Shown in pieces: positions 15,836 to 56,233 of a stretch of DNA of 64,000 nt. The stretch spans positions 96,001 to 160,000 of the forward strand of contig CAWDVR010000002.1 of the NCBI GenBank assembly GCA_963805975.1. Direction: 5' to 3'. The position numbers and the translations under genes are program-made. This stretch comes from an uncultured Acidobacteriota bacterium (lineage in GTDB: Bacteria > Acidobacteriota > Thermoanaerobaculia > Multivoradales > SZUA-115). Under the pieces are notes generated by a model. It was not told the DNA's origin. It was given only the letters and a program-made list of their open reading frames with translations, and made no database searches. Position 1 is the first letter of the stretch. The number at the start of each line of letters is the position of its first letter.

Positions 15836-18800
15836 TCACTCTGGAGCATCAGGCTCCGGAGGCAGGGCGCGTCCGATCAGGATCTGGCCCAGCAGGGCCG
15901 GGTAGCTGCGCATCGGCTTTTGGAAACCTCCTGAAGCCGACTCGACCTGGGCCGACACGTGACGATAGAGCTCGTCGAGGTCGATCAGGCCGTCTCCCGA
16001 GCTGTCCGCGGCGCCGCGCAATCCCTCGAGCAGGTAGTAGGTGAAGAGGCCGTGCTCGAGACGGTTGTCTTCGACCGCCACCTGGTTGGGCTCGCTGGCC
16101 GCGAGGATCGCCCGCCCACTGCCGGCGCTCGCCAGGCGGCTCAAGAACTCCGCGCTCAGACTGTTGCGCACAGAGCCGTTACCGCCGAAAACGGTGCGCC
16201 CGCCCGCGGTCGAGGCACCGCTGAAGCAGCTGTCGATCATCACCACCACGCGCTCGGCGCGATAACGCCGCAGGATCAGCTCGAGCTCGCTCATGGGCAG
16301 TGCCGAGCTGTAGAGATCTGCCGATACCGCGTCGACGGGCAGGAAGTATTTGGTGAGGCCGTCGGGCTCCGCAATGCCGATGGCTTGTTCCGGCATGCCG
16401 TGCCCGGCTAGGAAGAGGATCACGGTGTCCCCGGCGCTCGTGGCACGCTGTGGCAGCACGGTACCGAGAAGGCTCCGTACCTCCCGCAGCGTCGCCTGTT
16501 CGTTCGTTCGCACGAAGACCTGCTCGGCCGGCAGATCCAACGCAGTGCGGAAATAAGCGGCCACCGCCTCGGCGTCTTTGTGGGCATAGCGCAATGGCCG
16601 AATCGCGGTGTCCTGGTAGGAGCTCACACCGATAGCCACCAGCCAAACACGCCGACTCTCATCGTCTCGATAGAGCGACAGCACCCGAACGCCGCGCTGG
16701 CCATCAGCGGTGATGGCGGTCACTTCGAAGCGGTTCTCACCGCGGGCGAGCTGCACCGGCAACTCGTAAGTGCTCGCATTCAAGCTCCCGTCACGCACGG
16801 TTCTCGCGGGTGACGAATCCAGGGCGACCGGACGGTCGTTCAGGCGCAGGCGGACGTCTTCGAGCTCCGTGGCATGCTGAATCTCGAAGCGAAGGACGAT
16901 GGCTTCCTGCGCCACCTTCTCGCCGAACTGCTGCCGGAGAAAGGAGATCGTCGGTGCCAAGACGGCTCGCGCCGGCGTGGCGGGCTGTGGCACCGGCTCT
17001 GGTGGAGCGGCACTCATCACCACGGGCGCCTGCTCGACCACCCTCACCGCGGCATTTGTCCGTAGTGGTGCGAAATCCCGCTGCGTCACCGAGACGACGA
17101 GCGGAGCCTCGCCCGGCCCAGCACCGGTACGCACGGAGATCGGCACACGGATCCGCCGCGCGCCTCGTGATGGGACGATGTCCAGCAGAACCTCGCGCTT
17201 GGTTCTCGGCAGCCCCAAGTCGTCGAGCAGGTCCACTCCGGGCATCGAGCTTTCGAGCGTGACCTGTACTTGCTCGGCGGCGAGGTCCCCGCTGTTGCGC
17301 AGCTCCAAGGAGAGCTCCCGGGCCGTGCCGCGCTCGAGCTCCACGACCGAGGGAACGCTCAGCTCGAGCTGGGGCTGGAGGCTCCAGAACTCGACGGGCA
17401 GATCCTGGACGAGATCCGGAAAGCCGTCTTGGCGAATGCGCGCCGTCAACGGGAGGCGAGCTGGCTGCGCTCCTGCTCCGAAGCCCCGCGGCAGGCTCAG
17501 CACCACCCATTGGCTGCGGCTCGTCGCACCCGCCGGTAGCGTGCCGAAGTCGACTTGAGCCGGCTTCGGCTGCAGGAGGTCGGTGCTCGAGGCCAGCTCC
17601 AGTCGCACGTTCTCCGAGGACAACGACCCGTCGTTGCTGACCGCGAGGATCAACTCGACGGTCTCACCATTGTTCGCAATACCATCGGAGTTCCCTCTCG
17701 AGCCGGGTGAAGCTCCATCCGCGAGTTGAGTCGTAACCCGCAGCCGTGGCGCTCGGGCGACCGTGCTCCACCCCTGCTGACGTGTGGTCGACGCGGCCAG
17801 CTCGCCTCGGCCATCAACTGCCGAGAAAGTGAGCTGCAGCTGTGGGGCCAGCCCATTGCGCGAGACTGCGAGCAGAAAGCGGCTCTCGGCGATGTCGTGG
17901 CTCGCCAGGCGCTGGATGATGCCCGGCGTGGACAGCACGTGGACGCTTGCCAGCGGCTCCAGTAGCCCAACGCGAACGCCAAGGGCATCGCCCGCTCCCG
18001 AGTTGCGCACTCGAACGACAACCTCGACCGTCTCCCCGGCTCCGGGGAGGCCGTCACCATCCCCGACAGCGGGCGGCGTGGCGTCGTTGATGGCGACGTC
18101 AAAAATCTCGAGCGCCGGTGACGCGAAGCTCACCGCCGCCACCTCGAGAAGAATGGAGCGGGCCGCATAGCCACGGTTCTCGAGCACCTCGGCGCGCAGA
18201 GCGATCGGTCGGGCAGGTAGGCCCAAAGTGCTGTGGAAGCTGATCTCGTACACCAGGTCGGCACCGACACCGAGGTCGCCGAGCCCCGTGACCGCCGGTA
18301 CGATCAGCGACGGCTCGTCGGACGACAACCGGAGGCTAAGACCGAAAGCTTTGCCCGGGCCTTCGTTGCGCACCTTCACGCGGAGCCGAGCCGCTTCGCC
18401 GGCGTCCAGGCGACCGTTGGGCAGGAGACTGTCGTTGTCATCCAGCTCGATCGAGGCGAGAAGGGTCGCGGGCGCCGTCGACAGGCGCTCGAAAGAATCG
18501 AGCACACGGCGCAGGGACGGTGATCCCCGTAAGCTTTGGATGCAGCTCGAAATCGCCAGACGGAATGCATCCTCCGTGTAGGCTTCGACGAGAAGCGCCG
18601 GACTCCAGAAGTTAAACCCCTTTCGGTCCTCACCCGAGCAGTCCACGGTCACAATGGGTGCGTGCGCTCCATCGAACAGCTCCAGCTGCAATTGCGCTTG
18701 AACACCGGGGCCTGCTCCTCCCGGAGCACCAAGGACTTTGGTTGAGAAGCTGTAGACCGCCTCGAGCAGATGCGGCTCCTGCGGGGGGATTGGCGTGCTT

Positions 18801-19252
18801 TTGCGCTTTCTGGAGGTGGGCGCTATACCCGCCGGGAAGAGCTGCTCGAAAGTGCTCGTCAGCGCTTCTCCGAGGGCTTGGTCCAAGTAAATCGGAATAG
18901 AGATCCCCTGGACCAGATAGTCGCCCGAGACGCTCTCTATATCTTTCTGCAATGGGCTCAGCATGTTGTCGAGTCGACGCTTGAAGTCCCCCTCACGGAT
19001 GTAGATATCTCCGTAGTAGGCCGTGGCATCCGTGTTGCCGGGCTTGGAGGTCACACGGACCGCGATCGGGAAGCGGGATTCGAGGGGACTGATCGGCTCC
19101 GGTACCAGCTCGTCCACGTCGGGCATGGCAGACATCACTTTCCACACGACTTCGGCAGCTAGCGCGCTCGGCGAAGGTTGGAAAATCAAGAAGCCAACCA
19201 TGACGGCCCCTCGACTCACACTCCAGAAGATTCGCACGATCAGGTTCCCCAT
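15836..19252 (-). CDS. Exported caspase-family (peptidase C14) protein with tandem Ig-like (CARDB-like) domains
   Basis: Repeats NGRLDAGE..VRNEG, DGDGLPGAGE..VRNSG, NSDGIANNGE..VSNDG; C-terminal LVAIGVSSY...LRYAHKDA...FLAGHG...IDSCFSG...GLFTYYLLEGL; start overlaps the upstream stop. Confidence 0.88.
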   Translation of the reverse strand: MGNLIVRIFWSVSRGAVMVGFLIFQPSPSALAAEVVWKVMSAMPDVDELVPEPISPLESRFPIAVRVTSKPGNTDATAYYGDIYIREGDFKRRLDNMLSPLQKDIESVSGDYLVQGISIPIYLDQALGEALTSTFEQLFPAGIAPTSRKRKSTPIPPQEPHLLEAVYSFSTKVLGAPGGAGPGVQAQLQLELFDGAHAPIVTVDCSGEDRKGFNFWSPALLVEAYTEDAFRLAISSCIQSLRGSPSLRRVLDSFERLSTAPATLLASIELDDNDSLLPNGRLDAGEAARLRVKVRNEGPGKAFGLSLRLSSDEPSLIVPAVTGLGDLGVGADLVYEISFHSTLGLPARPIALRAEVLENRGYAARSILLEVAAVSFASPALEIFDVAINDATPPAVGDGDGLPGAGETVEVVVRVRNSGAGDALGVRVGLLEPLASVHVLSTPGIIQRLASHDIAESRFLLAVSRNGLAPQLQLTFSAVDGRGELAASTTRQQGWSTVARAPRLRVTTQLADGASPGSRGNSDGIANNGETVELILAVSNDGSLSSENVRLELASSTDLLQPKPAQVDFGTLPAGATSRSQWVVLSLPRGFGAGAQPARLPLTARIRQDGFPDLVQDLPVEFWSLQPQLELSVPSVVELERGTARELSLELRNSGDLAAEQVQVTLESSMPGVDLLDDLGLPRTKREVLLDIVPSRGARRIRVPISVRTGAGPGEAPLVVSVTQRDFAPLRTNAAVRVVEQAPVVMSAAPPEPVPQPATPARAVLAPTISFLRQQFGEKVAQEAIVLRFEIQHATELEDVRLRLNDRPVALDSSPARTVRDGSLNASTYELPVQLARGENRFEVTAITADGQRGVRVLSLYRDDESRRVWLVAIGVSSYQDTAIRPLRYAHKDAEAVAAYFRTALDLPAEQVFVRTNEQATLREVRSLLGTVLPQRATSAGDTVILFLAGHGMPEQAIGIAEPDGLTKYFLPVDAVSADLYSSALPMSELELILRRYRAERVVVMIDSCFSGASTAGGRTVFGGNGSVRNSLSAEFLSRLASAGSGRAILAASEPNQVAVEDNRLEHGLFTYYLLEGLRGAADSSGDGLIDLDELYRHVSAQVESASGGFQKPMRSYPALLGQILIGRALPPEPDAPE

Positions 19253-21798
19253 TGCGCTTTTGGATCGCCGGTCAGCGTGAAGCCTGCCCAATAGTAAGGC
19301 GCCGAGGTTGACTCTTCGCGCAGCAGCTCGATCTGTGCGCCCCGCAATGCTTCGGCCACGGAGGAGCCGGCCTTCCAGCGGCGGTAGAAACGATTCATGA
19401 GCTTCTCGGTGGCGGCATCATCGGCGTTCCAGAGGCTCGAGACGACACCCGGCGAGCCGGCATACAGAAAGCCGCGCATCAGGCTCTCGATCTCGTCTCC
19501 TCGGCTCGGCTCTCCGGTCGCTGTCTGGCAGGCTGCCAGCACGACCAGGTTGACTCCGGAGAGATCGAGCCGCGAGTAGATCTCGTGCACTTCCAGGTTG
19601 CCGTCATACCCCGCACCGGTCGCCAACACGATGCGGCTGAAGCGCGGGCTCGCCGGCATGTATTCGCCGTGCGCCGCGAAATGCACGATGTCGACCGTGC
19701 CATCGAGCTTCGCCAGCGCGGCCTCGCTGGCGGCGGGGCCGAGGAGGACCTCGCCGGCGAGCAGCTTGCCCAGCCCCACGGCCTCGCGGCCCATACCAAC
19801 GGCGGCTTTATACTGCCGCTCCTCGCGCTCGGGTGCTCCCCACACCCGGGCCTTGCCCGTGAACGGCGATTCTTTCGCGCGCAGGAAGCGCAGGGCACTG
19901 GCGCTGGGAACGTAGGTGAGCGTGAAGTCCTCGATGAGATAGCGGCCGGTGGCGGGCTCTCTGAGCGCCGCGAAGGGAACGCTGTGCAGAGGCCCGTGAG
20001 GGATCAGGATCAGCTTGGAGTGGTGGACAAACGGTAGCAGCGGCTCGAAGAGCTGCTGATAGAGCTGGACGAGGCTCGACTGCTCGGCCATGCAGTGCTC
20101 CGGAACAGAGCCGCGCACCGCCATCGAAGCGGTTTCGACACGACAGGTGAGCGGCACGATCGGCCCGCTCGGCAGCGGCAGCACGAGCGGCTCGAACGAG
20201 TCCCGCTCCACCACCCAAGCATGGATACTTTGATCGGTGACGAAGAAACTGATGAGCGTGACGTCGGAGTCGAGCTGGGCTTGGAGCTGGTCGACATCCA
20301 CCGGCCGAGCGGTGACCAGAGAGCCGAGCTCTGCGTCCTCCAGAGCCGTGCGAGCGGTCAGCCCCTGGAATTGCCGCCGTTGGTCCAGCAGCTCCTTTTC
20401 CTTGGCCTCGCGCCCCGCCCCGGTGGCGCGGGCCAGCTCTTTCTCGAGATCGACCAGGCGCTGCCGGAAGACCGTCGATTCCGCGGTGCTTCTGAGCAGG
20501 CGAGCGGGATCACGGTCGGCCCCCACGGCCCGCAGGAGCGCGCGGGCACGGGCTTGTTCTGCGACCAGGAAGGCCTCGCGAGGCCGCTGCTCGAGCACCA
20601 GCATCTCGAGCAGGCTCTGGTACGCAACGCGGCCGGGGCCGGCATGGTAGGTGGCGAGCAGGTCGAGCGTGCTCATCGTGCCGGTGGCCTCCTCGAGACA
20701 GGCCACGGCGGCTGCGGCCGCGTCGATCGCTTCAGGGAAGCGGTGTTGATACCAGAGCGCCCGGCTGAGGCTCGCGAGGGAGGGCGCCGCGCTCTCAGCG
20801 CTGCCGGCTCGCAGAGAGCGCCTCACATCCAGGCCCCAGAGGCGAATCGCGTCCTCGAACCGCCCCTGTTGAAAAGCCCGCAAGGCCGCCAGCAGCTGGC
20901 CTCGGGGTGAGCCCGGATCGGCCTGCCGTCGGTGGGTGGCCAGAGACTCACCACGATAGGCACAGCGTCTTTGTACGGTGGCGTGGGCCGCAGTGATCGC
21001 CACTCGACCACCGGCGGCGGAAGGACTCTTGCCGGCAGCATGGATTTCGTCGAGCCGGGGATCGAGGCGGATCCCCTGGCGATGGAATGCGGCCACGCTG
21101 GCTGCCAGGCCTGCCGTGCTTCGCATGAGCAAGAGGTTCGCGGCGAAGCCCAACTCTTTGAGCCTCGCCGCAAGCTCACTCTGGGCTGAGTCCGCGGCGG
21201 TTTGGTGCCCGACCAAATGGTAGTAGAGCGTCAGGATCGCCAGCGACTGAAGCTCTAATTGGCGAGCGAGGACTCGTTCGAGCGGGTGGCGAGGCTGGAC
21301 CTGGCGGCTGAGCGCCTTCGTTTTCTCGAGGTCGTGAATGACCTGTTCGTAGCGCCCGGCTTCGGCATCGAGCACGGCCTGCTGGAAGAAACCTCCCGCC
21401 TGCCAGAGCACGCCGTCCGGACGGTCCGCCTCTCGCAGGAGGCTCTGATTCACGCTCTCGGCAGCCGACAGATAGCCCGCCATCTGTAGCAGAAAGACCC
21501 GCTGCAGGAGAACCGTGAGGTAGACTCTCCGGTCACCCGCCAGCCTGGCATAGCTCTGTGCCCGTTCATTGGCTGTCAGCGCGGCGCCGGTTCGGCCCTG
21601 CAATCTGCGGGTTTCCGCGCCGAGCAGAGAGTACGTGGCGAGGCCCAGGCCCAGCTGGCGCATCACCGACGGCGAAGCTCGAAACGTCGCGCGCCACAGG
21701 GTTTCCCACGCCGCCCAGGTCTGTAAGGAGGTCGCGGTCAGGAGCACCACGCCGAGTGCGAGGTGCCGCAAGGCTCTATTCGAGAGGAGTGTGGTCAT
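19240..21798 (-). CDS. Exported TPR-CHAT protease
   Basis: N-terminal hydrophobic segment; EQARAR; dyad DIVHFAAHG...LVVLAACQT; PYYWAGFTLTG. Confidence 0.88.
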   Translation of the reverse strand: MTTLLSNRALRHLALGVVLLTATSLQTWAAWETLWRATFRASPSVMRQLGLGLATYSLLGAETRRLQGRTGAALTANERAQSYARLAGDRRVYLTVLLQRVFLLQMAGYLSAAESVNQSLLREADRPDGVLWQAGGFFQQAVLDAEAGRYEQVIHDLEKTKALSRQVQPRHPLERVLARQLELQSLAILTLYYHLVGHQTAADSAQSELAARLKELGFAANLLLMRSTAGLAASVAAFHRQGIRLDPRLDEIHAAGKSPSAAGGRVAITAAHATVQRRCAYRGESLATHRRQADPGSPRGQLLAALRAFQQGRFEDAIRLWGLDVRRSLRAGSAESAAPSLASLSRALWYQHRFPEAIDAAAAAVACLEEATGTMSTLDLLATYHAGPGRVAYQSLLEMLVLEQRPREAFLVAEQARARALLRAVGADRDPARLLRSTAESTVFRQRLVDLEKELARATGAGREAKEKELLDQRRQFQGLTARTALEDAELGSLVTARPVDVDQLQAQLDSDVTLISFFVTDQSIHAWVVERDSFEPLVLPLPSGPIVPLTCRVETASMAVRGSVPEHCMAEQSSLVQLYQQLFEPLLPFVHHSKLILIPHGPLHSVPFAALREPATGRYLIEDFTLTYVPSASALRFLRAKESPFTGKARVWGAPEREERQYKAAVGMGREAVGLGKLLAGEVLLGPAASEAALAKLDGTVDIVHFAAHGEYMPASPRFSRIVLATGAGYDGNLEVHEIYSRLDLSGVNLVVLAACQTATGEPSRGDEIESLMRGFLYAGSPGVVSSLWNADDAATEKLMNRFYRRWKAGSSVAEALRGAQIELLREESTSAPYYWAGFTLTGDPKAQWGT

Positions 21799-24493
21799 CG
21801 CGCGCAGATCCTCGGAGACTCGCCCGGTGGCTCTTGGTTTCGATCCATCGTGCTTGCGGATCTCCGGCGAGGGTGTAGCCCGCCCAATAGAAAGGCGCGG
21901 CGAAGCGTTCCTGGGCGAGCAGCGACAGCTGCGCTCCGCGAAGCGCCTCCGCCACCGGCGCGCCCGCTTTCAGGCGGCGATAGAAAGCGGTCATGAGCTC
22001 CGCAGAAGCAACATCGTCAACGCTCCAGAGGGTCGAGATCACGCCCGGACTGCCGGCGTAGAGGAAGGCGCGTGTCAGGCCCACGATCTCGTCACCGCCG
22101 CTGTGCTCACCCAAAGCTGTTTCACAGGCGGAGAGGACAACCAGGTTGACGCCCGTCAGGTCGAGCTCGGAGTAGATCTCGTGTACCTCCAGGTTGCCGT
22201 CGTCTTTGCCGTCCCTGGAAGGAGAAAGTGCCAGGCGGCTGAACCCCGCGCTCCGCGGAAAGTAGAGGCCGTGCGCCGCGACATGGACGATGTCGACCTC
22301 GCCCTCCAGCTCTTTGAGCGCCGACTCGCTGGCGGCCATGCCGAGCAAGGGTTCGGTGCCCAGAAGCTCTGCCACCTCCTCGGCCTCGCGGCGGCTTCCC
22401 GCCAGCGGCGGCAACTCGGGGTCGGCAGGGATGGGCTCTCCGAGCACCAAGGCGCGGCCGGTGAATGGAGACTCCTTGTGGCGGAGGTACTGGAGAACGC
22501 TGGCGCTCGGGGCGTAGGTGAGCGTGAAGTCCTCGATCAGATAGCGGCCGGTGGCCGGATCCCGCAGCGCGGCGAAGGGAACGTAGTGCAGGACGCCGTG
22601 GGGAATGAGGATCAGCTTGGAGCTGTGCAGATGAGGCCGTAGCGGTGCAATGAGCTGTTGATAAAGACCCTCCGCATTCTGGTCCGCGGTGCTGCAGCCG
22701 GCGAGCGGCTCGCTGCCTCGAACGCTGTGCCTCACCGCGTCGGAGAAGCACAGCGGAGTGGAGACTTCGCCCTCGAACGGCGGCAGAGAGAACCAGCTGA
22801 AGGTGTCACGGTCGATCACCCAGGCATGGATGCGGAAATCCGTGACGAAGAAGCTGATCAGGGTGACACCCGGCTCGAGCGCGGCCTGCACTTGGGCCGC
22901 TTCCACAGGATGGGCCTTGACCACGGAGGCGAGCTCTGGGTCCAGGGCCACGGTTCGAGCACGCAGGCCTTCGTGGAGCTGGCGCAACTGGAGCAGCGTC
23001 GACTCCATGGCCCGTCGTTCGTCACCGATCGCCAAGGCCATCTGCCGCTCGGTTACAACGATGCGTGCGGCGAGCTGGTCCAGGTCCCGAGAGAATGAGC
23101 TCGCGTGGGAGCGTTGCTGCACGGGACGGGTGTTGCCCAGCGCCTGGAGCAGGGCTCGGGCCTTGGCCAGCTCGGCGACGGCGAAAGCCTCCCTCGTGCG
23201 CAGCTCCAGGCTCAACATCTCGAGCAGCGCGTGGTAGAAGAGACGCGTGACCCCACCACGGTAGGCCTGAATCGATTCCTGCCGCTGATTCAAGTCTCCA
23301 GCCACCTCGAAGCAGGCGACGGCGGAGGCCGCGCGCTCGATCGCTTCGTCGAACCGACCCTGCAGCCAAAGAGCAGCGCTCAGGCCGGAGAGGTGAATCC
23401 CGGCGAGCTGCGCGTCGCCCACTCGGAGCTCTTCCGCCAGCGCGATCTCCCAGGCCCGAATGGCTCCTGTACGGTCGCCCAGATGGTAGAGGATGGGAGC
23501 CCAAATCCCGGTGCGCCATGCCTTCGTGCGGTGGAACTGGCCCAGGCCGACCGCCAGCGTTTGGTCGCCGTTGGCGCAACGGCTCGCGCCTGGAATTCCT
23601 CCTGCGCTTTGCCGCAGAGTACCCGGCGCAGCTTGGGGGCCTTGTCGTTGCAACGAGCGATGGATTCCAGCAAAGTCCATCCTGAGCTTCTGCTTCTCGC
23701 CGAGCCATATCTGAAACGAGCCCAGCTTGCGGATGGCCTCGGCCGTCGTCGTTGCAAAAGGCAGATGATGCTCGTCGAGCATGCGCTCGAGCTCCCTGGC
23801 CGCACTCGAGCTGCCCCTTCCTGGGCCGAGCATGCTGTAGACAGAGGGCAGGAGCGTCGTCGCGGTCCATTCGGTCAGCGTGGCTATCAGCTGTTCGAGC
23901 AGGGCGCTCTGAGGCTCCCTGGCCAACATTCGTGATTGTTCGAGGTAGGCAATACCTTCCTCGTATCGCCCGTCCAAGGCCAGAATAAGACCCCGTTGGG
24001 CTTGCGCCACCGCGGTCATGGCTCGGTTGTTGCTACGCTCGGCAGCGGACATAATTTCTTCGTTGGTTTCGAGCGCGGCGTCAGGATATCCGAAGGCCAG
24101 TAGCAGCCTGGAGCGATGCATGAGAACGCTGGGGTAGGCCCAGGGGTGGAACGAGAGGCGGGCGAAGAGCAAGGCACGGTCGTTCTTCTCCAGGGCCGCG
24201 CTCGGGTTGCCGCGCATGGTTTCGAGCTCGGCGCTCCAGAGCAGCCGCGTCGTCTCCATCATGCTCAGGAAACGGTACCCGTATGCAGACTCCGCAGGGA
24301 TCACCAGCTCTTCGTCAGCGCCGTGATGCCATAGGCCGCGCATCGCCAGTCTGACGGACGCCGCCATCAGGGCGAGCTGCGCCAATGTCGCGCCGACGAG
24401 CAGTCCCGACAGCAAGACCTGGCGTAGCGGGTGGCTCCGTGGGCGGACGCTGCCGAGAGCTTTCGGCTCCTCGCTTCGAGGTCCCACTCTCAC
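21776..24493 (-). CDS. Exported TPR-CHAT protease (paralog of 19240-21798)
   Basis: N-terminal TM; ELAKAR; dyad DIVHVAAHG...LVVLSACET; PFYWAGYTLAG; GTGA overlap with the upstream gene. Confidence 0.88.
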   Translation of the reverse strand: MRVGPRSEEPKALGSVRPRSHPLRQVLLSGLLVGATLAQLALMAASVRLAMRGLWHHGADEELVIPAESAYGYRFLSMMETTRLLWSAELETMRGNPSAALEKNDRALLFARLSFHPWAYPSVLMHRSRLLLAFGYPDAALETNEEIMSAAERSNNRAMTAVAQAQRGLILALDGRYEEGIAYLEQSRMLAREPQSALLEQLIATLTEWTATTLLPSVYSMLGPGRGSSSAARELERMLDEHHLPFATTTAEAIRKLGSFQIWLGEKQKLRMDFAGIHRSLQRQGPQAAPGTLRQSAGGIPGASRCANGDQTLAVGLGQFHRTKAWRTGIWAPILYHLGDRTGAIRAWEIALAEELRVGDAQLAGIHLSGLSAALWLQGRFDEAIERAASAVACFEVAGDLNQRQESIQAYRGGVTRLFYHALLEMLSLELRTREAFAVAELAKARALLQALGNTRPVQQRSHASSFSRDLDQLAARIVVTERQMALAIGDERRAMESTLLQLRQLHEGLRARTVALDPELASVVKAHPVEAAQVQAALEPGVTLISFFVTDFRIHAWVIDRDTFSWFSLPPFEGEVSTPLCFSDAVRHSVRGSEPLAGCSTADQNAEGLYQQLIAPLRPHLHSSKLILIPHGVLHYVPFAALRDPATGRYLIEDFTLTYAPSASVLQYLRHKESPFTGRALVLGEPIPADPELPPLAGSRREAEEVAELLGTEPLLGMAASESALKELEGEVDIVHVAAHGLYFPRSAGFSRLALSPSRDGKDDGNLEVHEIYSELDLTGVNLVVLSACETALGEHSGGDEIVGLTRAFLYAGSPGVISTLWSVDDVASAELMTAFYRRLKAGAPVAEALRGAQLSLLAQERFAAPFYWAGYTLAGDPQARWIETKSHRASLRGSARDDHTPLE

Positions 24494-25194
24494 CCCACGT
24501 ACAGCGGCTGCTCGCGGCTGCTCTGGAAGCGGCCGAGGCGATCCTCGAACAGCGCTTCGATGGAGTAGGTGCCCGAGGGGGCCTTGGCCGGTATCGTGAC
24601 TTCCGAGCGCGTCTCGACGATGCCGCCGCCGCGCGGCACCACGAAGCTGTCGGGCCCGAGGGCATTCATGTACTGGCCGCCGTATTTGATGCCCGTGAAG
24701 GCTTCGATCTTGAGGTCTTCCTCGCGGTTCGGCCCGATCACCAGGTAGCGCACGTAGACCTTGGCCGTGCCGCCGGGTGCGACCCGGGCCGGCTCGAAGC
24801 GCACCTCCTCGACCGCGAGGATGTAGCCCTGGGAAGAGTCGTAGCTCAGGCGGGCCATGGCCTCGTCACGGCTGCCGTAGAGCATGTCCTGCCGGCGCCC
24901 GATGAGATATCCGGCGACCCCGCCGACCACGGCACCGGCGACCGCGCCCTTGACCGGGTCGTGCCCGAGAATGCGCGCCCGCAAGAGGCCACCGGCTGCC
25001 CCGAGCACCGCACCGGTGATGGCGGCCTTCTTCCGGCGCGGCTGCTGCCGCAGCCACGACTTGAGGGGATGGCTGGGCGCGCCGCTGGTTGCGCCCACCG
25101 TGCGGGGAACGCTGCCGCCGCCCGCAAGCGGCGAAGAGGCGCAGCCGGAGAGCTGGAGAGCACAAAGCAGGAGAGCGGTGATCCATTTCTTCAT
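24490..25194 (-). CDS. Glycine-zipper lipoprotein
   Basis: Lipobox MKKWITALLLCALQLSGC; GAVLGAAGG...GAVAGAVVGGVAGYLIG; Ig-like C-terminus. Confidence 0.82.
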   Translation of the reverse strand: MKKWITALLLCALQLSGCASSPLAGGGSVPRTVGATSGAPSHPLKSWLRQQPRRKKAAITGAVLGAAGGLLRARILGHDPVKGAVAGAVVGGVAGYLIGRRQDMLYGSRDEAMARLSYDSSQGYILAVEEVRFEPARVAPGGTAKVYVRYLVIGPNREEDLKIEAFTGIKYGGQYMNALGPDSFVVPRGGGIVETRSEVTIPAKAPSGTYSIEALFEDRLGRFQSSREQPLYVG

Positions 25195-25208
25195 GGGAAA
25201 CCTCGCTT

Positions 25209-26888
25209 TCAACGGTCGTCGTCATCGTCACGGTCGATTTCGGTCTGCTTCTTGCGCCGGGGATTGAGCAAGGTCGCATCGGTCTTGCTGCCGGCGCCCT
25301 GCCAGAGCTGTTTCATTCCCTCCTCCGCCGTGGCCACGAGCTCGCGCGCCCGCGCGGCGACGTCTGCGGGAGCCCCGGCCTCGGCGGCGAGTCGTTGCGC
25401 GAGCTGCTTGGCTTCGGGGTAGCTCGCGGCGGAGAGCAGCGCGTCGATCTCCGTCAGCCGGCGCTCCCAGGCTTGGCGCTCGGCCTGGGCTGCCGCCTGA
25501 GCCACCGACTGGGCATGCTGGGCGGCGGTGCGGCGCTCGATCTCTTGCTCGGTGATGCGGTTGCTGAGGAGCGACAGCGTGGCCATCTCGTCCACCAGGT
25601 CGGTGCGGTGCTGGTACGAGCGGTTCAACAGCTCCTGCACCTTCTGCCGGGCTTCCTCGAGCCGGCCTTCGTCACACCAGCGCTCCGCCTGGGCCGTACC
25701 CGCTGCGAGCTCGGCACGCAAACGCACCAGCGCTTGCTCGCGGATCGCCTGCGTCGGATCGGGACGAGGCGGCTCGCGATCGCGCCGCACGGGCGGCGGT
25801 GGCGGCTCGGGATGGGGTGCAGCGGGTGCCTGGATCGGTGCCGGGGGAGGTTCGACGATCACGTACTGGTTTGAGATGGTCGGCGATGGCGGATCTCGCT
25901 GCTGCCACCCGTCGAGCAGCTTCCCGAGTAGCGTCAGGGTCGTCAGGGCCAGGATGACGGCCCCCCAGACCGTCCGCGCTCTTCTAGGGCGGACATTCGG
26001 CTGCCCCCTGTCCCCGACCCGGTTGCCGGCGCTGCGCGCGTGCTCTCTCGGCAGCGCCGCCGGCTCGACAGCATGGAGCGCACGCTCGAACGCCGCGGCG
26101 CTCGAGAAACGCTCGCGCGGCTCCTTGCGCAGCGCCTTCGACAGAGCTGCGCAGACCACCGAGCTGGCGGCGAGCGTGCTCAGAACTTGTTCCGCCGGCC
26201 GCTCCAGATGCAGGCGCTGGATCTCGTAGTCGCTCTTGCCGTCGAACGGCGGCCGGCCCGCCAGCAGCTCGAAGAGCAGCACGCCGGCGCTGTAGATGTC
26301 GCTGCGATGGTCCAGGCTCTGCGGGCTCTTGATCTGCTCCGGGGACATGTAGACCGGGGTACCCACGGTCTGTGAGGTCTTGGTACGCCGCTCCTCGCCC
26401 ACCCGTAGCGCAATGCCGAAGTCGGTGAGCTTCGCCACTCCGGTGGCGCTCACCAGCACGTTGCCGGGCTTGACGTCCCGGTGGATGATGCCTTGCGAGT
26501 GCGCGTAGTCGAGGGCCGAGAGCACCTGCCCCAGGATGCGCAGTGCCTGGTCTTCCGGCAGGCCCCGGCCGCCCCGCTCCCGCAGCAGCTCCTCGAGACT
26601 GCGGCTGCCGAACAGCTCCATCACCAGGTACGCGACGCCCGCGACCTCGAGCACGTCGTGGACGGCGACGATGTGCGGATGCTGGAGCCGCGCCTGCGCC
26701 CGGGCTTCGGCGGCGAAGCGCTCGCGCAGCTCGCCGTCGCGGGTCAGCTCGAAAGGCAGAGCCTTGATCGCCACCTCGCGATGCAGCCGGTCGTCCACCG
26801 CGCGGTAGACGACTCCCATGCCGCCGCGGCCCAGCAGGCCGAGCACCCGGTAGGGGCCCAGCAGCGCGGGCAGAGGTGCGGGTGCCAT
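25209..26888 (-). CDS. Hanks-type Ser/Thr protein kinase with TM segment and helical extracytoplasmic domain
   Basis: LGRGGMGVVY, VAIK, HRDVKPGN, DFG, GTPVYMSPEQ, SDIYSAG; TM WGAVILALTTLTLLG. Confidence 0.95.
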   Translation of the reverse strand: MAPAPLPALLGPYRVLGLLGRGGMGVVYRAVDDRLHREVAIKALPFELTRDGELRERFAAEARAQARLQHPHIVAVHDVLEVAGVAYLVMELFGSRSLEELLRERGGRGLPEDQALRILGQVLSALDYAHSQGIIHRDVKPGNVLVSATGVAKLTDFGIALRVGEERRTKTSQTVGTPVYMSPEQIKSPQSLDHRSDIYSAGVLLFELLAGRPPFDGKSDYEIQRLHLERPAEQVLSTLAASSVVCAALSKALRKEPRERFSSAAAFERALHAVEPAALPREHARSAGNRVGDRGQPNVRPRRARTVWGAVILALTTLTLLGKLLDGWQQRDPPSPTISNQYVIVEPPPAPIQAPAAPHPEPPPPPVRRDREPPRPDPTQAIREQALVRLRAELAAGTAQAERWCDEGRLEEARQKVQELLNRSYQHRTDLVDEMATLSLLSNRITEQEIERRTAAQHAQSVAQAAAQAERQAWERRLTEIDALLSAASYPEAKQLAQRLAAEAGAPADVAARARELVATAEEGMKQLWQGAGSKTDATLLNPRRKKQTEIDRDDDDDR

Positions 26889-26890
26889 CG

Positions 26891-29840: not shown

Positions 29841-29861
29841 GGTGGTGTTCTCGCCCCCTAG

Positions 29862-29888
29862 AGACACCAACGGACACACCTTGTTGCC
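29862..29888 (-). promoter_or_regulatory. ECF-type promoter GGCAACAA-N13-GTGTCT facing the PP2C-kinase-CHAT-caspase operon
   Basis: Minus strand reads GGCAACAAggtgtgtccgttgGTGTCT; identical elements and spacing in two other intergenic positions. Confidence 0.7.
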
Positions 29889-29899
29889 ACGCGCGCCGG

Positions 29900-29926
29900 G
29901 GCAACAAAGAGAGCGATGGCGTGTCT
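29900..29926 (+). promoter_or_regulatory. ECF-type promoter GGCAACAA-N13-GTGTCT facing the vWA-tubulin-GTPase operon
   Basis: GGCAACAAagagagcgatggcGTGTCT, then GGAGG RBS at 29936 and GTG at 29947. Confidence 0.72.
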
Positions 29927-29946
29927 ATCGGCCGCGGAGGAGATCC

Positions 29947-36772: not shown

Positions 36773-36789
36773 CCGTCAAGGAGCTCACC

Positions 36790-40080: not shown

Positions 40081-40084
40081 AGCG

Positions 40085-45420: not shown

Positions 45421-45436
45421 GGAACCGAGGCCCCTC

Positions 45437-47365
45437 ATGCCATGGATCGGATTCGCTGACCGGCCCGCCCTGGGCCAGCTCAAGGCCCAGATGGCTGGCT
45501 GCCGGCAACGCGTGCCGGCTCGCTGCCAGGGCTTCGAGCGCACATTGCTCGAGGTCGAGCGCGAGATCGAGATCGCGTTCCGTCGCTGGTGGCCCCTGCG
45601 GCCGCGTGAGGACGAGCTGGCACGGCTCCGGAAGCGCACGCTCGAGCTCGCGGCCGACAGTGAAGCCTTTGCCGCTTTCGCCGCCGCCCTGACGCCGCTC
45701 GAGGAAAAAGTCCGCTGGCTGCGCCATGAAGCCCTGCGCACGCCGAACCCCGAGGTGCAGAACTGGCTCATCCGCCACTGCGATGGCTGGGTTGGGGCCC
45801 TGTCACGACTCGGCCAGGCGCAACGAGCCGCCGAGCTCGCCGCGGAGCGGAAGCGTTTGCTCGAAGTGGAAGCTGAGGTGCGCCTGGCCGAGGAGGCCAT
45901 CACCGTGCTGGCCGAGCTGGCGCGGGCGGCGGCGACCCTGCCGGGCGAAGTCGGAGTGGCGCCGCTCGCGGCCCAGCTCCTCGGGTTGCGGCAGGACGTG
46001 CTCCACGCACAAGTCACGGCCGAGCTGCTGCGCAAGGCACGGCGCTTCCTCGCGCCGCTCGCCAACCTCCAGCCCCCGAGCCCGGTGCAAGGCCAGGCCG
46101 AGGACCTGATCGTGCTCGTCACGGTGCTTCAAAGCTGGAGCGGCGCCACTGGCCTCCTGGTGTCACAAGTCGAGGCGCTGGTGGCGCGGGTGCTCAGCCA
46201 TCAGGGGCCCCCGGACGAGCTCGCTGCCCAGGGCCGAGAGCTGCTCGAACAGCTGCTCGCTCTCGCCCGCAGCCGGCGCGAGGCGAGCCTGCGGAATCTC
46301 GACCAGCAGAACCAAGCCCTGGCCAACGGCTGCGGCAGACAGCCAGAGCAGAAATCGCTCGAGGCCGGCCTCGAAGCGCTGGCCAAGAAGAACGTGGCCG
46401 AGCCCGCCGACCATCAAGCCTGGGAAAGCGACCTCGAGCAGCTGCGCCGGCGCTTCGCGGACCTGGCCAAGGTCCTCGAGCAGCGCCTGCAGGCCACGCT
46501 CGGAGAACGGCTCGATGCTGCCACCGAGGTGCTGCGGCGGCTCGAGCAGGAATCCGACCTGCCCGCCGCGGTCGCTACCGAGTGCGATCGGCTTTCCGGC
46601 AGCTGGCGAGATCTCGCCGAGCGGCGCGGATGGAGCGAGGTGCTGCCGGGCCTGGCCGACGCGAAGGAGCTGCACGAGACGCTCTTGGCGCTCGAAGCCA
46701 GCGTGATTGCCGAGCGGGCCGCCACACGATCGCTCGACGAGCGGCGGCCCGCGCTCATCGACGAGCTCCAGGCCTTGTCCGCGGCTCAGCTGCGGCCACA
46801 GGAGCGAGCCGAGCGCGACCTTTGCCTGCGCGAGCTCGACGAGCTCGGGCCGGCGCCCACCACCGATCTGCGGCAGCGGCGCCTGCGCGTGGAACCGGTC
46901 GTGGCCCAGGGTGAAGACCTGCTCGAGCGCCTGCGCCAGGCGGAGGGGCGCGTGCGCGCACGGCACGCGGACTTGCTGCGCCGGCTCGAGGCCTTTCATC
47001 GCGCCGACTACGGGCTGGAGACAAGCCCGCTGCGCGATCGGGTGGAAGGCTTGATCCACGGCGTGCCCGCGACGCCCCAGGCCTGGAACGCCGTCGAGGA
47101 CCAGCTCGCGCTCGCCGAGGAGCTGCTCATTCGCCTCGACCGGCATGGCCGGCGCCGCGCGGCCGCACAGGTCGCGGGTCTGCTCGAAGCCCTGGACCGG
47201 AGCCGAACGGTGCGGCTTGAGCCGGTGTTGCGGCGCGAGATCGACGAGCTCGTGGCCAAAGCGTTGCAGTCGGGGAGCCACACCCTGCCGCCGAGCTCGT
47301 GGCGGCGGCGAGCCGAGCAGCTCTTGCGGCGCGCCGGTGCACCCGTGCTGCGAGGAGGTGTGTGA
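45437..47365 (+). CDS. Alpha-helical / coiled-coil hypothetical protein
   Basis: 642 aa rich in Leu/Glu/Arg heptads; TGATG coupling to the next gene. Confidence 0.75.
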   Translation: MPWIGFADRPALGQLKAQMAGCRQRVPARCQGFERTLLEVEREIEIAFRRWWPLRPREDELARLRKRTLELAADSEAFAAFAAALTPLEEKVRWLRHEALRTPNPEVQNWLIRHCDGWVGALSRLGQAQRAAELAAERKRLLEVEAEVRLAEEAITVLAELARAAATLPGEVGVAPLAAQLLGLRQDVLHAQVTAELLRKARRFLAPLANLQPPSPVQGQAEDLIVLVTVLQSWSGATGLLVSQVEALVARVLSHQGPPDELAAQGRELLEQLLALARSRREASLRNLDQQNQALANGCGRQPEQKSLEAGLEALAKKNVAEPADHQAWESDLEQLRRRFADLAKVLEQRLQATLGERLDAATEVLRRLEQESDLPAAVATECDRLSGSWRDLAERRGWSEVLPGLADAKELHETLLALEASVIAERAATRSLDERRPALIDELQALSAAQLRPQERAERDLCLRELDELGPAPTTDLRQRRLRVEPVVAQGEDLLERLRQAEGRVRARHADLLRRLEAFHRADYGLETSPLRDRVEGLIHGVPATPQAWNAVEDQLALAEELLIRLDRHGRRRAAAQVAGLLEALDRSRTVRLEPVLRREIDELVAKALQSGSHTLPPSSWRRRAEQLLRRAGAPVLRGGV

Positions 47366-48138
47366 TGTCTAGTGACTTAGGAACACCCCGGCAGATCTGC
47401 CTGTGGGGGCCGGTGAGCGCGGGCAAGACGGCGCTGCTCGCTCAGCTCGTCCACGCCGCACCGCTCGCCACGGATTCCTGGGAGGTGCTGCCTGCGGCCG
47501 AGGCGCAGGATTTCGTCGAGTCGACCCGGCATCGCATGCGCGAGCAGAATCGTTTTCCCGCGGCCACCACCGCCGGCGGCGGTCTGGCGCTGGCCTTTCA
47601 CTTTCGCCACCGGCGCCTGGGCAGCACCGCGACGCTGGCGGTCGAGGATCGGGCGGGCGACGATTCGCAAGCCTTCACGCCGCTCGGCGAGACGATCACC
47701 CGGGCGGAAGGCCTGGTGATGCTGCTCGACTCGACCTACGAGCCGGCGGTCCTCGAGGGTTTCCTGCTCCGCACGCTCGAGCGGCTCTCTTACGCCCGCG
47801 GTGCGCACTCCGGCCGCGATCCGCGACCGATCGCGGTCTGCCTCTCGAAGGCCGATCTCTACATCCAAACACCGGACGACCTGGCGAGCGCGAGCGCCGA
47901 GCCCGATGCCTTCGTGCGGCGGCGGCTCGACGAGCGCTGCCTGGCACCGCTCGCCACCTACTGCGAACGCTTCCAGCTCTTCCCGGTGTCGGCGATCGGC
48001 CTGCGCCTGCGCTGGGGGGCGATCGAACCGGTGGTGTTCGTGGATGAATCCGGCACCGAGCGCCTGTGCCCCCACACCACGCCGCTCAATCTCCTGGCCC
48101 CGTTTACCTGGGTGCTCGACCAATTGCAGGAGGCCTGA
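47365..48138 (+). CDS. TRAFAC-class GTPase (double-GTPase type)
   Basis: G1 GPVSAGKT, G2 FPAAT, G3 EDRAG, G4 SKAD, G5 VSA. Confidence 0.85.
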   Translation: MSSDLGTPRQICLWGPVSAGKTALLAQLVHAAPLATDSWEVLPAAEAQDFVESTRHRMREQNRFPAATTAGGGLALAFHFRHRRLGSTATLAVEDRAGDDSQAFTPLGETITRAEGLVMLLDSTYEPAVLEGFLLRTLERLSYARGAHSGRDPRPIAVCLSKADLYIQTPDDLASASAEPDAFVRRRLDERCLAPLATYCERFQLFPVSAIGLRLRWGAIEPVVFVDESGTERLCPHTTPLNLLAPFTWVLDQLQEA

Positions 48139-49622
48139 TGGCAAGCGCGCTTTCCTGGCCGGCATTCAGCGGTATTCAAGGCCGCTCGTGGCAGCTGCCG
48201 CAGGAGCTCCGCGTCCGGCGTGGCATCTGGGGAAAAGTGCATGGCGCGCGCACCGATTTTCGCTGGATCGCCCAAAGCTCCGGCTTCGGTCATGGTGCAC
48301 AGCCGCTGGAAAAGCTCTTCTGGATGGGGCTCGAAGAGCAACCCACTCGCGCCGCCTTCTGGCGGGCGACCCCGGCTCGGTGGCTGGCGATCTCGGCCTA
48401 CCCCAGTCGCGCGGTGGATTGGAACGGGCGGCGGGGTTTCTGCGAGCGGCAGGTCCTCGAGTGGACGCCCGACCCCACCACCGAAACCCTGCCGGCGGCA
48501 GCCGCGGCACTCCTGCTGCTGCCTCGGGCCGAGACCTTCGACGACAGCCTGTGGTGGGATCAGGCGCTGCAACTCGCGGACTCCCCGGATCTCGTGCTGC
48601 CGCTGGTGGAAGATCGATCTCTGTACGTCCAGGTCGACGAGATCGCCCTTGCGGACGCGGTTCGACGGGGGCTCGACGAGCTGCGCAGCAGCGCTGCCGA
48701 CGGCGAGCTGCTGCCCGGTCTCGCGGCGCTCTACACGGCCCTTCGCGCCGGCCAGCAACCGGCTCTGCTGAGCGGGCTGCTCCAACCTCTTTCGGGGGTC
48801 GCTCTCGCCACCCTACTGTTGCTCCTGCCGCGCGAGCAGGCCGACCGCCTGTCGCTGGCCGGATGGCTCTTCGCCCACGGCGTGGCACCCTCGCGCCTGG
48901 CGGACAACTGGGACGTGGTCGCCCTGCCGCCACCGGCAGGAGAGCGTTCCATCACGCCCGACGACGAGGGCCTGCGCATGGCCGAGGCCCTGCTCGCGGG
49001 CGAGCCGCCGGGCGAGCTCGTCCCGCTCCCTCGCGCACCCAGGGCGAGCGCAGCCGTGACGAGCTCGTCACCCATCCAGTCCTGGATATCCCAGCCCCAG
49101 GCGCCACAGCCTTCAGAGCCCCCAGAAGAAGCTCGGCCGCTCGCCGCCCCCGGCCCGGAGGCGCCGGCGGTACTGCACGAGATCTTCCGGTTCGCCAGCG
49201 CCGGCAATCGCCGCTGGCTCGCGCCGGAAGCGATCGCACAGGTCTATCGGCAGCAAGCTCGCGGCGGTGCGCTCGCACCGGCCGACCGCGAGCTGCTCTG
49301 CGGCTGGATCGCTCAGCTCGCGACCCACCGCCCCCCTCACGCCGACGCGGACCAATGGCTGACGAAGGTGGACCTGCTGCGCGCGCTCGCCCTCGCCCTG
49401 GCGCCGTCTCCCGAAATCCTGGACCGTCTCGGAAGCTTCGCCAGTCAGCGGGTGCCGCCGCTGCTCTACGCCCCGATCTTCCAGGCCGGCCCGGAGATGC
49501 TGCGCGACCGCTTGGGCGATGCGGCTTTCCGCGCCGTTGCGAAAGAAAGCCGGGGTTGCCACTCGCCGCGCTGGCGACAGTGGGTCGAAGAATGGCTGGC
49601 GCCGCCCTCCGACGGCTTGTAG
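48138..49622 (+). CDS. GTPase-associated (GAP1-N-like) hypothetical protein
   Basis: Coupled to the GTPase (TGATG); N-terminal WGKVHGARTDFRWIA..S...D..GR pattern. Confidence 0.6.
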   Translation: MASALSWPAFSGIQGRSWQLPQELRVRRGIWGKVHGARTDFRWIAQSSGFGHGAQPLEKLFWMGLEEQPTRAAFWRATPARWLAISAYPSRAVDWNGRRGFCERQVLEWTPDPTTETLPAAAAALLLLPRAETFDDSLWWDQALQLADSPDLVLPLVEDRSLYVQVDEIALADAVRRGLDELRSSAADGELLPGLAALYTALRAGQQPALLSGLLQPLSGVALATLLLLLPREQADRLSLAGWLFAHGVAPSRLADNWDVVALPPPAGERSITPDDEGLRMAEALLAGEPPGELVPLPRAPRASAAVTSSSPIQSWISQPQAPQPSEPPEEARPLAAPGPEAPAVLHEIFRFASAGNRRWLAPEAIAQVYRQQARGGALAPADRELLCGWIAQLATHRPPHADADQWLTKVDLLRALALALAPSPEILDRLGSFASQRVPPLLYAPIFQAGPEMLRDRLGDAAFRAVAKESRGCHSPRWRQWVEEWLAPPSDGL

Positions 49623-49655
49623 CGACTTCGTGCTCACCACCTGCAACCCGTAGGC

Positions 49656-53365: not shown

Positions 53366-53370
53366 GACGT

Positions 53371-54468: not shown

Positions 54469-54478
54469 AGGATCTCCC

Positions 54479-56092: not shown

Positions 56093-56127
56093 GCTGCAGG
56101 TCTCCATGTGCCACGGTCGCACCGGAT

Positions 56128-56154
56128 AGACACTGCGGAGCCTGCTTTGTTGCC
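56128..56154 (-). promoter_or_regulatory. ECF-type promoter GGCAACAA-N13-GTGTCT facing the second GTPase operon
   Basis: Minus strand reads GGCAACAAagcaggctccgcaGTGTCTatc; third exact copy of the motif. Confidence 0.72.
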
Positions 56155-56233
56155 ATGGAGCTACCGCAGAGCGGGATCGGACCTGCTCCGCGGTGACGTG
56201 CTAGTAGGGCGAGTTACGGAAAGCTGCGAGGCG

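Follow-up and report, generated by a model that had tools for sequence, protein, structure and literature searches.

Do bacterial tubulin–GTPase genes and the kinases and proteases encoded beside them form one system, and what would switch it on? This question is raised by a stretch of 64,000 nucleotides (here called the window) from an uncultured Acidobacteriota bacterium of the class Thermoanaerobaculia (GCA_963805975.1, contig CAWDVR010000002.1), in which an earlier note, made from the sequence alone, had proposed a single system of 21 genes. FtsZl1–vWA–GTPase operons, in which kinases are frequent neighbours, have a predicted role in membrane remodelling, as given in the available part of Makarova and Koonin 2010 (PMC2875224), and double-GTPase (DO-GTPase)/GAP1 systems include inactive effectors and tubulins (Kaur et al. 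2020, PMC7159879). Both are computational predictions, and no trigger or regulator is described for either in the available text of these papers.

Three tightly coupled operons

The 21 open reading frames were all found at the positions given in Table 1, each with one terminal stop, and form three operons (A, B and C). The tight coupling described earlier is borne out by the reading frames and their junctions: 9 of the 18 intra-operon junctions are GTGA, ATGA or TGATG overlaps (6, 1 and 2, respectively), and the others are overlaps of 13 and 23 nt (n = 2) or gaps of 2–17 nt (n = 7). Pfam matches among the 21 proteins comprise PP2C, zinc ribbon plus FHA, FHA plus trypsin, kinase, glycine-zipper lipoprotein, two CHAT and caspase, together with vWA, Tubulin_2, the MrfA zinc-binding domain and DO-GTPase2. 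This annotation agrees with the PP2C, FHA, kinase, lipoprotein, CHAT, caspase and tubulin labels of the earlier note; C4, which it had called vWA, has a by-eye likeness and no significant match with any method, and its label of coil for B7 is likewise borne out by no tool.

Table 1 Features of the window, in order of position
Feature	Position	Strand	Description	Basis
TPR-CHAT–caspase	56..4978	-	TPR-CHAT fused to caspase domain; both His-Cys dyads intact	Pfam CHAT 1.8e-71, Peptidase_C14 1.3e-16
TPR-CHAT	5003..7771	-	N-terminal hydrophobic segment	domain search, hydropathy
Anti-sigma	7833..8642	-	predicted transmembrane anti-sigma, zf-HC2-like N-terminus, one TM (111-129)	profile matches, hydropathy
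ECF	8666..9223	-	ECF sigma factor	Pfam, NCBIfam
TPR-CHAT	9411..12674 (start approximate)	+	divergent from ECF gene	domain search
U6	12678..13763	+	marker of cassette	no Pfam/NCBIfam match
A8	15836..19252	-	CARDB/Ig-like repeats, C-terminal caspase, dyad intact	domains, motifs
A7	19240..21798	-	CHAT protease, dyad intact	domains, motifs
A6	21776..24493	-	TPR-CHAT protease, dyad intact, N-terminal hydrophobic segment	domains, motifs
A5	24490..25194	-	glycine-zipper lipoprotein	Pfam; lipobox judged by eye
A4	25209..26888	-	membrane Ser/Thr kinase, catalytic motifs intact	domains, motifs
A3	26891..28252	-	FHA, TM, trypsin-like domain without catalytic Ser	domains, motifs
A2	28249..29010	-	double zinc ribbon, FHA	domains, motifs
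A1	29007..29840	-	PP2C phosphatase, motifs intact	Pfam, NCBIfam, motifs
Site A	29862..29888	-	promoter-like site, operon A	GGCAACAA-N13-GTGTCT
Site B	29900..29926	+	promoter-like site, operon B	GGCAACAA-N13-GTGTCT
B1	29947..32118	+	vWA, MIDAS DxSxS intact, one TM, ~120-aa C-terminal tail; predicted surface receptor	Pfam above cut-off
B2	32115..34421	+	vWA, MIDAS intact, TM, tail	Pfam weak, E 0.002
B3	34418..36772	+	vWA, MIDAS intact, TM, tail; B1 paralogue	Pfam weak, E 0.006
B4	36790..40080	+	FtsZl1/Tubulin_2 GTPase, T1 and T4 loops intact	Tubulin_2 E 3.6e-45
B5	40085..42526	+	likely degenerate tubulin-like domain, T4 loop lost, hydrophobic segment	profile-profile
B6	42523..45420	+	N-terminal TM segments, inactive YprA/MrfA-like helicase	Pfam MrfA Zn-binding domain, motifs
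B7	45437..47365	+	no assigned family	24-33% identity to orthologues
B8	47365..48138	+	DO-GTPase2-type GTPase (Walker A, EDxxG, SKAD)	PF19993
B9	48138..49622	+	GAP1-like, predicted longin+DENN/TagF-like fold, helical C-terminal domain	language-model features, fold
C4	49656..50759	-	vWA-like by eye, DxTxR instead of MIDAS	no significant match
C3	50756..53365	-	second GAP1-like protein, N-terminal 300 aa	language-model features
C2	53371..54468	-	second P-loop GTPase-like protein (GGKGVGKS, DGSGE, TMADD)	motifs
C1	54479..56092	-	multi-pass membrane protein, family not assigned	hydropathy
Site C	56128..56154	-	promoter-like site, operon C	GGCAACAA-N13-GTGTCT

Operon B opens with three predicted surface receptors (B1–B3), all of which retain the DxSxS MIDAS found in vWA genes beside FtsZl1. 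The tubulin B4 is the most conserved gene of the locus (58–68% identity); its (A/G)GGTGSG loop, of the GGGTG(S/T)G type that marks FtsZl1, is present in 7 of 8 aligned homologues, the eighth having one further change, and its length of 1096 aa is consistent with the coiled-coil and helical C-terminal layout of FtsZl1. Motif inspection supports the presence of several pseudoenzymes: the helicase proposed to be dead (B6) has both Walker A and the DExH motif replaced, and the trypsin motif of A3 is dead, more distant homologues retaining GNSGG or GSSGG. The reading of B5 as a degenerate tubulin has moderate support (profile–profile E 6e-4, probability 29%). The protease dyads are intact, as are the motifs of the kinase, the phosphatase, the tubulin and the GTPase. 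Export of the operon A proteases, as the earlier note had it, is suggested by N-terminal hydrophobic stretches seen by eye; A6 lies above a hydropathy threshold, and A7, which is 45% identical to A6, and A8 lie below it.

B8 matches PF19993 (DO-GTPase2) at 29.3 bits (cut-off 27; E 8.7e-7) and has the Walker-B glutamate (EDxxG) that marks DO-GTPases. At the TxKD-type motif of FtsZl1-neighbour GTPases, B8 has SKAD and C2, which has no Pfam match, the variant TMADD. In 5 of 9 homologous loci, a B8-type GTPase is fused behind a B9-like domain. The GAP1-like label suits the position after the GTPase and this fusion, and is favoured by language-model features for both B9 and C3 (Atlas neighbours carry GAP1-N2/M at 0.94–0.95) and by the predicted fold for B9, and matched by Pfam in neither. 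The four best rows for the B9 model are TagF, DENND1A, a Loki longin and DENND10; a B9 profile search retrieves a closed family of 295, and profile similarity between C3 and B9 is undetectable.

A common promoter class and a candidate sigma factor

As the earlier note had observed, one promoter-like motif precedes all three operons. Across the 5.36-Mb genome, the pattern GGCAACAA-N13-GTGTCT has exactly three occurrences, one ahead of each operon, and the same boxes with spacers of 8–12 or 14–18 are absent. The window holds three sites versus none in 100 shuffles, a test that taken alone is post hoc because the pattern was derived from the same three sites. Homologous operon starts provide a partly independent check: C-N15-GTGTCT is found at 17 of 22, compared with 33 of 4043 genes of the host genome. 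A matrix built without the window sites ranks them 3rd, 8th and 14th in the host genome, and all 14 box positions agree between the back-to-back promoters of A and B. The evidence supports a single ECF-type promoter class ahead of all three operons.

Outside the region delimited in the earlier note, at 56–13763, lies a cassette encoding an ECF sigma factor, an anti-sigma, TPR-CHAT proteins, a caspase and a protein (U6) without a match in Pfam or NCBIfam. The anti-sigma (269 aa) matches zf-HC2 weakly (E 0.009) and an NCBIfam antisigma model at E 2e-6, below cut-off. For 4 of 6 ECFs flanking homologous loci, the best match in the host genome is the window ECF (8666-9223), and in one genome (G562) a close relative of this ECF adjoins the same motif. 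The window ECF is probably the cognate sigma factor of the three promoters. Of 54 Tubulin_2 loci, 25 have U6 no more than 30 kb away, versus about 0.9 expected, a comparison in which related loci are not independent.

A conserved core and a mosaic operon

The 13 genes of operons B and C are also found, complete or partial, in seven other Thermoanaerobaculia and in three Methylococcaceae, with core gene order kept across both groups; the Methylococcaceae have the core without U6. As anticipated, the tubulin–GTPase core is tied to CHAT/caspase genes, with a CHAT or caspase-like gene no more than about 3.5 kb from a core end in all seven other Thermoanaerobaculia loci; in four genomes of family f14, CHAT genes 36–38% identical to the 56..4978 product flank the core. 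It is the ECF/anti-sigma/TPR-CHAT/caspase cassette that forms the conserved protease arm, not the CHAT–CHAT–caspase genes of operon A to which this arm had been assigned.

Conservation does not extend to all 21 genes as a unit; the conserved core is the 13 genes of B and C. A fixed 21-gene system is not supported: orthologues of A1, A2, A3 and A5 were not found in the DNA retrieved around the 10 homologous cores, and the other genomes with the lipoprotein (11, among 400 of the class) and with the dead helicase (7) do not overlap. Operon A is a mosaic, whose phosphatase–FHA–kinase and kinase–lipoprotein blocks are found elsewhere, never beside the B+C core. The PP2C–ZnFHA–FHA/trypsin–kinase block is complete in four other genomes and cut by a contig end in one more, and in all five the core is absent from the retrieved DNA. 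In eight other genomes, the kinase–lipoprotein pair heads an operon with the same promoter class, and in 7 of the 8 this operon is seen to lead towards another Tubulin_2 gene; a sister tubulin module with this promoter class carries HSP70 and GrpE. The patchy spread of the locus (8 of 401 class genomes), with an integrase to its left and IS1182 to its right, is consistent with a mobile conflict locus.

Relation to known systems

The locus is a variant of the FtsZl1/double-GTPase systems, probably under DdvS-like control. It shares with the FtsZl1 operons, as the available part of PMC2875224 presents them, a tubulin-like protein of ~1100 aa whose GTP loop is intact, vWA proteins that are membrane-bound or secreted and have an intact MIDAS, P-loop GTPases that have diverged and a nearby kinase. 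Unlike the operons presented there, it encodes three vWA receptors with transmembrane segments, a second tubulin that is likely dead, a dead helicase of the YprA type anchored in the membrane, and two pairs of a GTPase with a GAP1-like protein, and it shows the ECF/CHAT/caspase linkage with a conserved promoter.

Likenesses to DO-GTPase/GAP1 systems (PMC7159879) include two GTPases, each followed by a GAP1-like gene, B8 having the Walker-B glutamate; tubulin domains in two genes along with several vWA genes, which matches the firmicute versions of the GAP1-N2 tubulin theme; the combination of kinase, PP2C and vWA, which recalls the third theme; and the presence of inactive domains. In contrast to those systems, none of 99 B9 relatives matches Pfam GAP1 models at E 0.001, N-terminal zinc ribbons are absent, and themes termed non-overlapping and limited to firmicutes and actinobacteria are joined. 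For the third component of GAP1 systems, an FNIII-repeat protein (N2 type) or GASH (N1 type), neither fn3 nor GASH matches any of the 21 proteins at E 0.01, a level at which a very diverged copy could be missed. ECF, CHAT, DENN, longin and acidobacteri- have zero occurrences in the main text of PMC7159879. Compared with eukaryotic longin–DENN GEF modules (PMC3521125), B9 has 8–9% identity and a DO-GTPase, not Rab, as its partner.

DdvS/DdvA of Myxococcus xanthus control a defence island, with anti-phage genes in the regulon (PMC11506125). The resemblance (PMC11506125, PMC6061681) lies in an ECF sigma with a co-encoded zinc-type transmembrane anti-sigma (zf-HC2 being weak here), in TPR-CHAT domains and in AAC and GT elements at the several promoters that serve one island. 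There, however, periplasmic TPR-CHAT is fused to the anti-sigma and the regulon is CBASS/CRISPR; here the genes are separate, with caspases added, and the putative regulon is a tubulin/GTPase machine, with no CBASS or CRISPR–Cas genes among the scanned proteins.

Proposed function and alternatives

Our preferred reading, to which we give slightly less than an even chance, is that the B+C core and operon A, linked by the common motif, make up an inducible, envelope-spanning conflict (defence) apparatus with the neighbouring ECF as its switch. By analogy to DdvA–DdvS, predicted exported TPR-CHAT and caspase proteases would sense a foreign or damage signal, leading to cleavage of the membrane anti-sigma; the freed ECF, if rightly assigned to the observed motif, would transcribe A, B and C. 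The vWA receptors, judging from their observed domain layout, may bind an outside ligand through MIDAS, and the GAP1-like partner encoded after each GTPase may switch it, as the predicted fold suggests by likeness to longin–DENN with small GTPases. FtsZl1 tubulin could then assemble at the membrane on the dead scaffolds B5 and B6, containing or reshaping the attacked envelope. Operon A would be a lineage-specific add-on, supplying further proteases and a kinase/PP2C/FHA threshold that can be reversed, all controlled by the same sigma.

The same sigma-gated core could instead serve membrane remodelling or cell contact (vesicle release, adhesion, predation or development) and not defence, which we consider possible, if rather unlikely. 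The role predicted for FtsZl1–vWA–GTPase operons in the available part of PMC2875224 points this way, as do three integrin-like receptors, several transmembrane proteins, the DENN-like predicted fold and the HSP70 and GrpE of the sister module. However, patchy, apparently mobile spread and variable, low-GC3 protease genes suit conflict loci better, and the experimentally tested ECF/TPR-CHAT regulator controls anti-phage genes (PMC11506125). Operon A might also be a separate module that shares the sigma without functional contact to the tubulin core, an improbable arrangement that would fit the occurrence of its phosphatase–FHA–kinase block apart from the core, the non-overlap of lipoprotein and dead-helicase genomes and the GC3 of A6–A8 (0.77–0.79 versus 0.81–0.92 for operon B and C genes); against it stand the identical boxes of the A and B promoters, the kinase–lipoprotein operons heading towards another Tubulin_2 gene and, from the available part of PMC2875224, the frequency of kinases beside FtsZl1.

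Very improbable, in our view, is an offensive secretion-like apparatus with T6SS-like regulation (PpkA/PppA/Fha/TagQ/TagF) and caspase-clan proteases as exported effectors. Kinase, PP2C, FHA and Gly-zipper lipoprotein do recall the T6SS threonine-phosphorylation pathway (PpkA, PppA, Fha, TagQ), as the available part of PMC5995506 describes it, and the predicted B9 fold recalls TagF in the available part of preprint 10.64898/2025.12.08.692957. But the TagQ score is 27 bits (cut-off 300), B9 adjoins a GTPase, operon A is missing from other cores, and Pfam and NCBIfam find no T6SS structural genes among 30 window proteins, the scanned window genes lacking any tube, sheath, baseplate or outer-membrane channel.

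We speculate, with little confidence, that the caspase-clan/ECF cassette is a plug-and-play danger switch that deploys interchangeable tubulin membrane machines, each copy of the cassette acting through a promoter variant of its own. The machine here would be a prokaryotic analogue of integrin-to-small-GTPase signalling, with three vWA receptors, two GTPase–DENN switches and a tubulin filament on dead-enzyme scaffolds remodelling or walling off the envelope. Should B9 prove to work as a DENN-type exchange factor, a bacterial GTPase–DENN pair would be linked with a tubulin and with integrin-like receptors. The locus offers a handle in its candidate sigma and three exact promoter sites: if the ECF assignment is true, the machine could be switched on at will, and the role of these tubulins, a long-standing question, would become directly testable. 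A paralogous cassette in the host genome, with a distinct ECF and a distinct promoter variant at three sites (CCWACAAA-N12-GGGTCT), provides an internal control for specificity.

Conserved core and its parts

The 21 genes that the earlier note joined into one system are all real, open and tightly packed: across the 18 junctions inside operons A, B and C, 9 show GTGA, ATGA or TGATG overlaps and the largest gap is 17 nt. As a single unit, the proposed system stands only in part. The 13-gene core of operons B and C keeps its gene order wherever it recurs, but orthologues of A1, A2, A3 and A5 were not found in the DNA fetched around other cores. All 13 core genes were matched in G063, G178, G225, G377 and G064, and 11 in G040 (B7 and C3 without a match, C1 weak); partial sets in G265, G421, G061 and G062 are broken off by contig ends, and metagenome loci (6 found, 5 mapped) add more. 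The dead helicase B6 is present in 8 of 401 class genomes, including G000, the genome of the window, and the one same-genus genome has no tubulin match. Close named relatives come from Thermoanaerobaculia and Methylococcaceae; the tubulin is 63–66% identical to that of Methylococcaceae, which suggests transfer across phyla. In G064 (Methylococcaceae, contig C27), operons C and B run in the same direction as one block with B3 duplicated.

Kinase and PP2C motifs are intact, the dyad is complete in the two CHAT proteins and in the caspase, and three MIDAS motifs are also intact. In the Tubulin_2 protein B4 the T1 and T4 loops are preserved; the GTPase B8 shows Walker A, EDxxG and SKAD motifs. B6 has TM segments at its N-terminus and a match to Bacillus YprA (E 5e-8) in which the DExH motif is replaced; the trypsin serine, present in more distant homologues, is missing from A3. 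Between B5 and the tubulin domain the alignment is collinear (E 6e-4, probability 29%); B5 has lost the T4 loop, and support for a likely degenerate tubulin-like domain is moderate. The fold of B9 is a model prediction, and membrane topology of the locus proteins is likewise predicted. Protease export is predicted by eye from the sequence; A6 lies above the hydropathy cut-off, and A7 and A8 below.

Locations of features in the window and in other contigs (genome:contig:positions)
Feature	Location	Description
Operon A	29840 to 15836	Divergent from B
Operon B	29947 to 49622	Convergent with C, 33-nt gap
Operon C	56092 to 49656
Cassette	56-13763
GGCAAC-N15-CTTTCT	9279-9310	Upstream of TPR-CHAT gene divergent from ECF
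Orphan gene	13889-14302	Low GC; no Pfam hit
Orphan gene	14414-15811	Low GC (GC 0.62, GC3 0.72); no Pfam hit
IS1182-family transposase	56161-58297	Apparently frameshifted across two frames
Tyrosine integrase	G000:C2:90479-91714	Left of window; Arm DNA-binding domain; caspase gene follows
Similar ~170-nt sequences	G000:C2:92600-92950; C3:250-450	Intergenic, near caspase gene of both cassettes
Second cassette	G000:C3:609-35827
Second tubulin copy	G063:C143:28582-31512	Broken (stop, frame changes); upstream of operon C, adjoins TerB-like gene
Sister system	G322:C2:427000-456000; G383:C80; G163:C79; G133:C23; G129:C21; G283:C284	Tubulin_2 of 1230-1330 aa

A shared promoter-like motif

The note's claim of one motif ahead of all three operons is borne out: GGCAACAA-N13-GTGTCT lies 21, 20 and 35 nt before the first genes of A, B and C. 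The window has these three sites, against 0 in 100 shuffles, and the rest of the 5.36-Mb genome has none; the same boxes at ten other spacer lengths occur nowhere in the genome. GTGTCT lies within 330 nt at 17 of 22 homologous operon starts, a count that is not blind because targets were partly chosen after the sites were seen. All 17 have C 16 nt upstream of GTGTCT, and most have AAC there; the remaining starts are two of Methylococcaceae, two of operon B and C1 of G040, where the site falls inside the called start of the gene. Among 4043 called G000 genes, GTGTCT precedes 84 and C-N15-GTGTCT 33. A matrix built from the 17 homologue sites alone ranks the window sites 3rd, 8th and 14th in G000. 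The upstream box differs between genomes (TCACCCGA in G040, TCAACAAA in G377), and CCAACAA-N13-GTGTCT stands beside the closest ECF relative, in G562. DdvS-type promoters carry AAC and GT elements, according to the part of PMC6061681 consulted. GGCAAC-N15-CTTTCT could be a weak fourth site.

A linked ECF cassette

The earlier note missed a partner: a cassette that encodes an ECF sigma factor, a TM anti-sigma, the unknown protein U6 and three TPR-CHAT proteins, one of them fused to a caspase. A further caspase gene and an integrase are found immediately outside the window, on its left. The same cassette is directly upstream of B1 in G063, G178, G225 and G265, whose ECFs have the window ECF as best G000 match; in G040 and G377, the ECFs close to the core best match another sigma. 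A CHAT or caspase-like gene lies within about 3.5 kb of one end of the core in 7 of 7 other Thermoanaerobaculia cores (in G421 assigned by similarity only). In the 401-genome class sample, Tubulin_2 occurs in 59 genomes and U6 in 56. U6 lies ≤30 kb from 25 of 54 tubulin loci (37 genomes with both) versus about 0.9 expected, a count that leaves out one unpublished genome and five sub-cut-off matches, overstates independence because most loci are one family, and is itself understated owing to fragmented contigs. Two results speak against an obligate link: searches found no U6 in the three Methylococcaceae, G040 or G377, and G562, with the closest cassette (41–55% identity), has no core within 60 kb.

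A second G000 cassette has its own ECF, anti-sigma, TPR-CHAT genes, U6 paralogue and caspases, together with a vWA gene, a caspase–FGE fusion and a protein of 1625 aa in which tubulin-like loops can be read by eye but which Pfam does not match. Three CCWACAAA-N12-GGGTCT sites lie in this cassette, and the rest of the genome has none. The promoter pattern, the homologue sites and this variant are the best evidence for a putative ECF regulon. Among 39 region-2 matches to sigma factors in G000, the probable reader of the motif is assigned by proximity and co-variation.

Operon A is a mosaic

Orthologues of A1, A2, A3 and A5 are absent from the fetched DNA of all 10 homologous genomes, and whole-genome searches for A3 gave nothing beyond FHA-domain matches in 5 of 5 core genomes searched. 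Of 400 other class genomes, 11 have the lipoprotein A5, and the dead helicase is absent from all 11. A kinase precedes it in 10 and a CHAT or caspase gene adjoins in 8; in 7 the operon continues to a different Tubulin_2 gene, 25–28% identical to B4, with HSP70 and GrpE genes between in the 3 loci scanned. A3 occurs in 6 of 150 other order genomes (four with the full PP2C–ZnFHA–FHA/trypsin–kinase block, one broken by a contig end, one with the trypsin gene only), and the core is absent from the fetched DNA of all six. GC3 is 0.77–0.79 in A6–A8 versus 0.81–0.92 in B and C (genome median 0.92).

In the sister system, which shares the cassette and the class of promoter, the genes that follow are, in order, kinase, lipoprotein, unknown, HSP70, unknown, GrpE, two unknowns and Tubulin_2. 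Nothing homologous to the window GTPases was seen there. In G038 (contig C253), baseplate-J and DUF6519 genes lie 10–15 kb from the PP2C–FHA–kinase block.

Possible function

A literature search found no description of the combination, although the supplements of PMC2875224 and PMC7159879 may already list these gene families. By the features tested, the locus fits the FtsZl1 operon as far as the consulted part of PMC2875224 describes it. It works like the DO-GTPase/GAP1 systems in the portion of PMC7159879 consulted, but is not classed with them because the third component was not found here and GAP1 is only a candidate. The regulator would act like DdvS/DdvA, as covered in sections of PMC11506125, but without the fusion.

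We tentatively read the whole set, at a little short of an even chance, as a sigma-gated envelope conflict apparatus. Proteases would sense a signal, the anti-sigma would be cleaved and operons A, B and C transcribed; vWA proteins would then bind ligand, the GTPases switch and tubulin assemble on the dead scaffolds. The gene layout, motifs, linkage and promoter pattern are direct observations; we infer the defensive role as we do each causal step. PADLOC matched none of the 13 core genes. A non-defensive machine for membrane remodelling or contact is somewhat unlikely. That operon A is a co-regulated bystander seems improbable, and a T6SS-like offence apparatus very much so.

Flanking sequences

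Around the integrase left of the window, a tRNA or flanking repeat was looked for and none found. The similar ~170-nt sequences near the two cassettes may be a repeat or the end of a mobile element. Two orphan genes separate the cassette from operon A, and the IS1182-family ORF stops 7 nt short of the promoter box of operon C.
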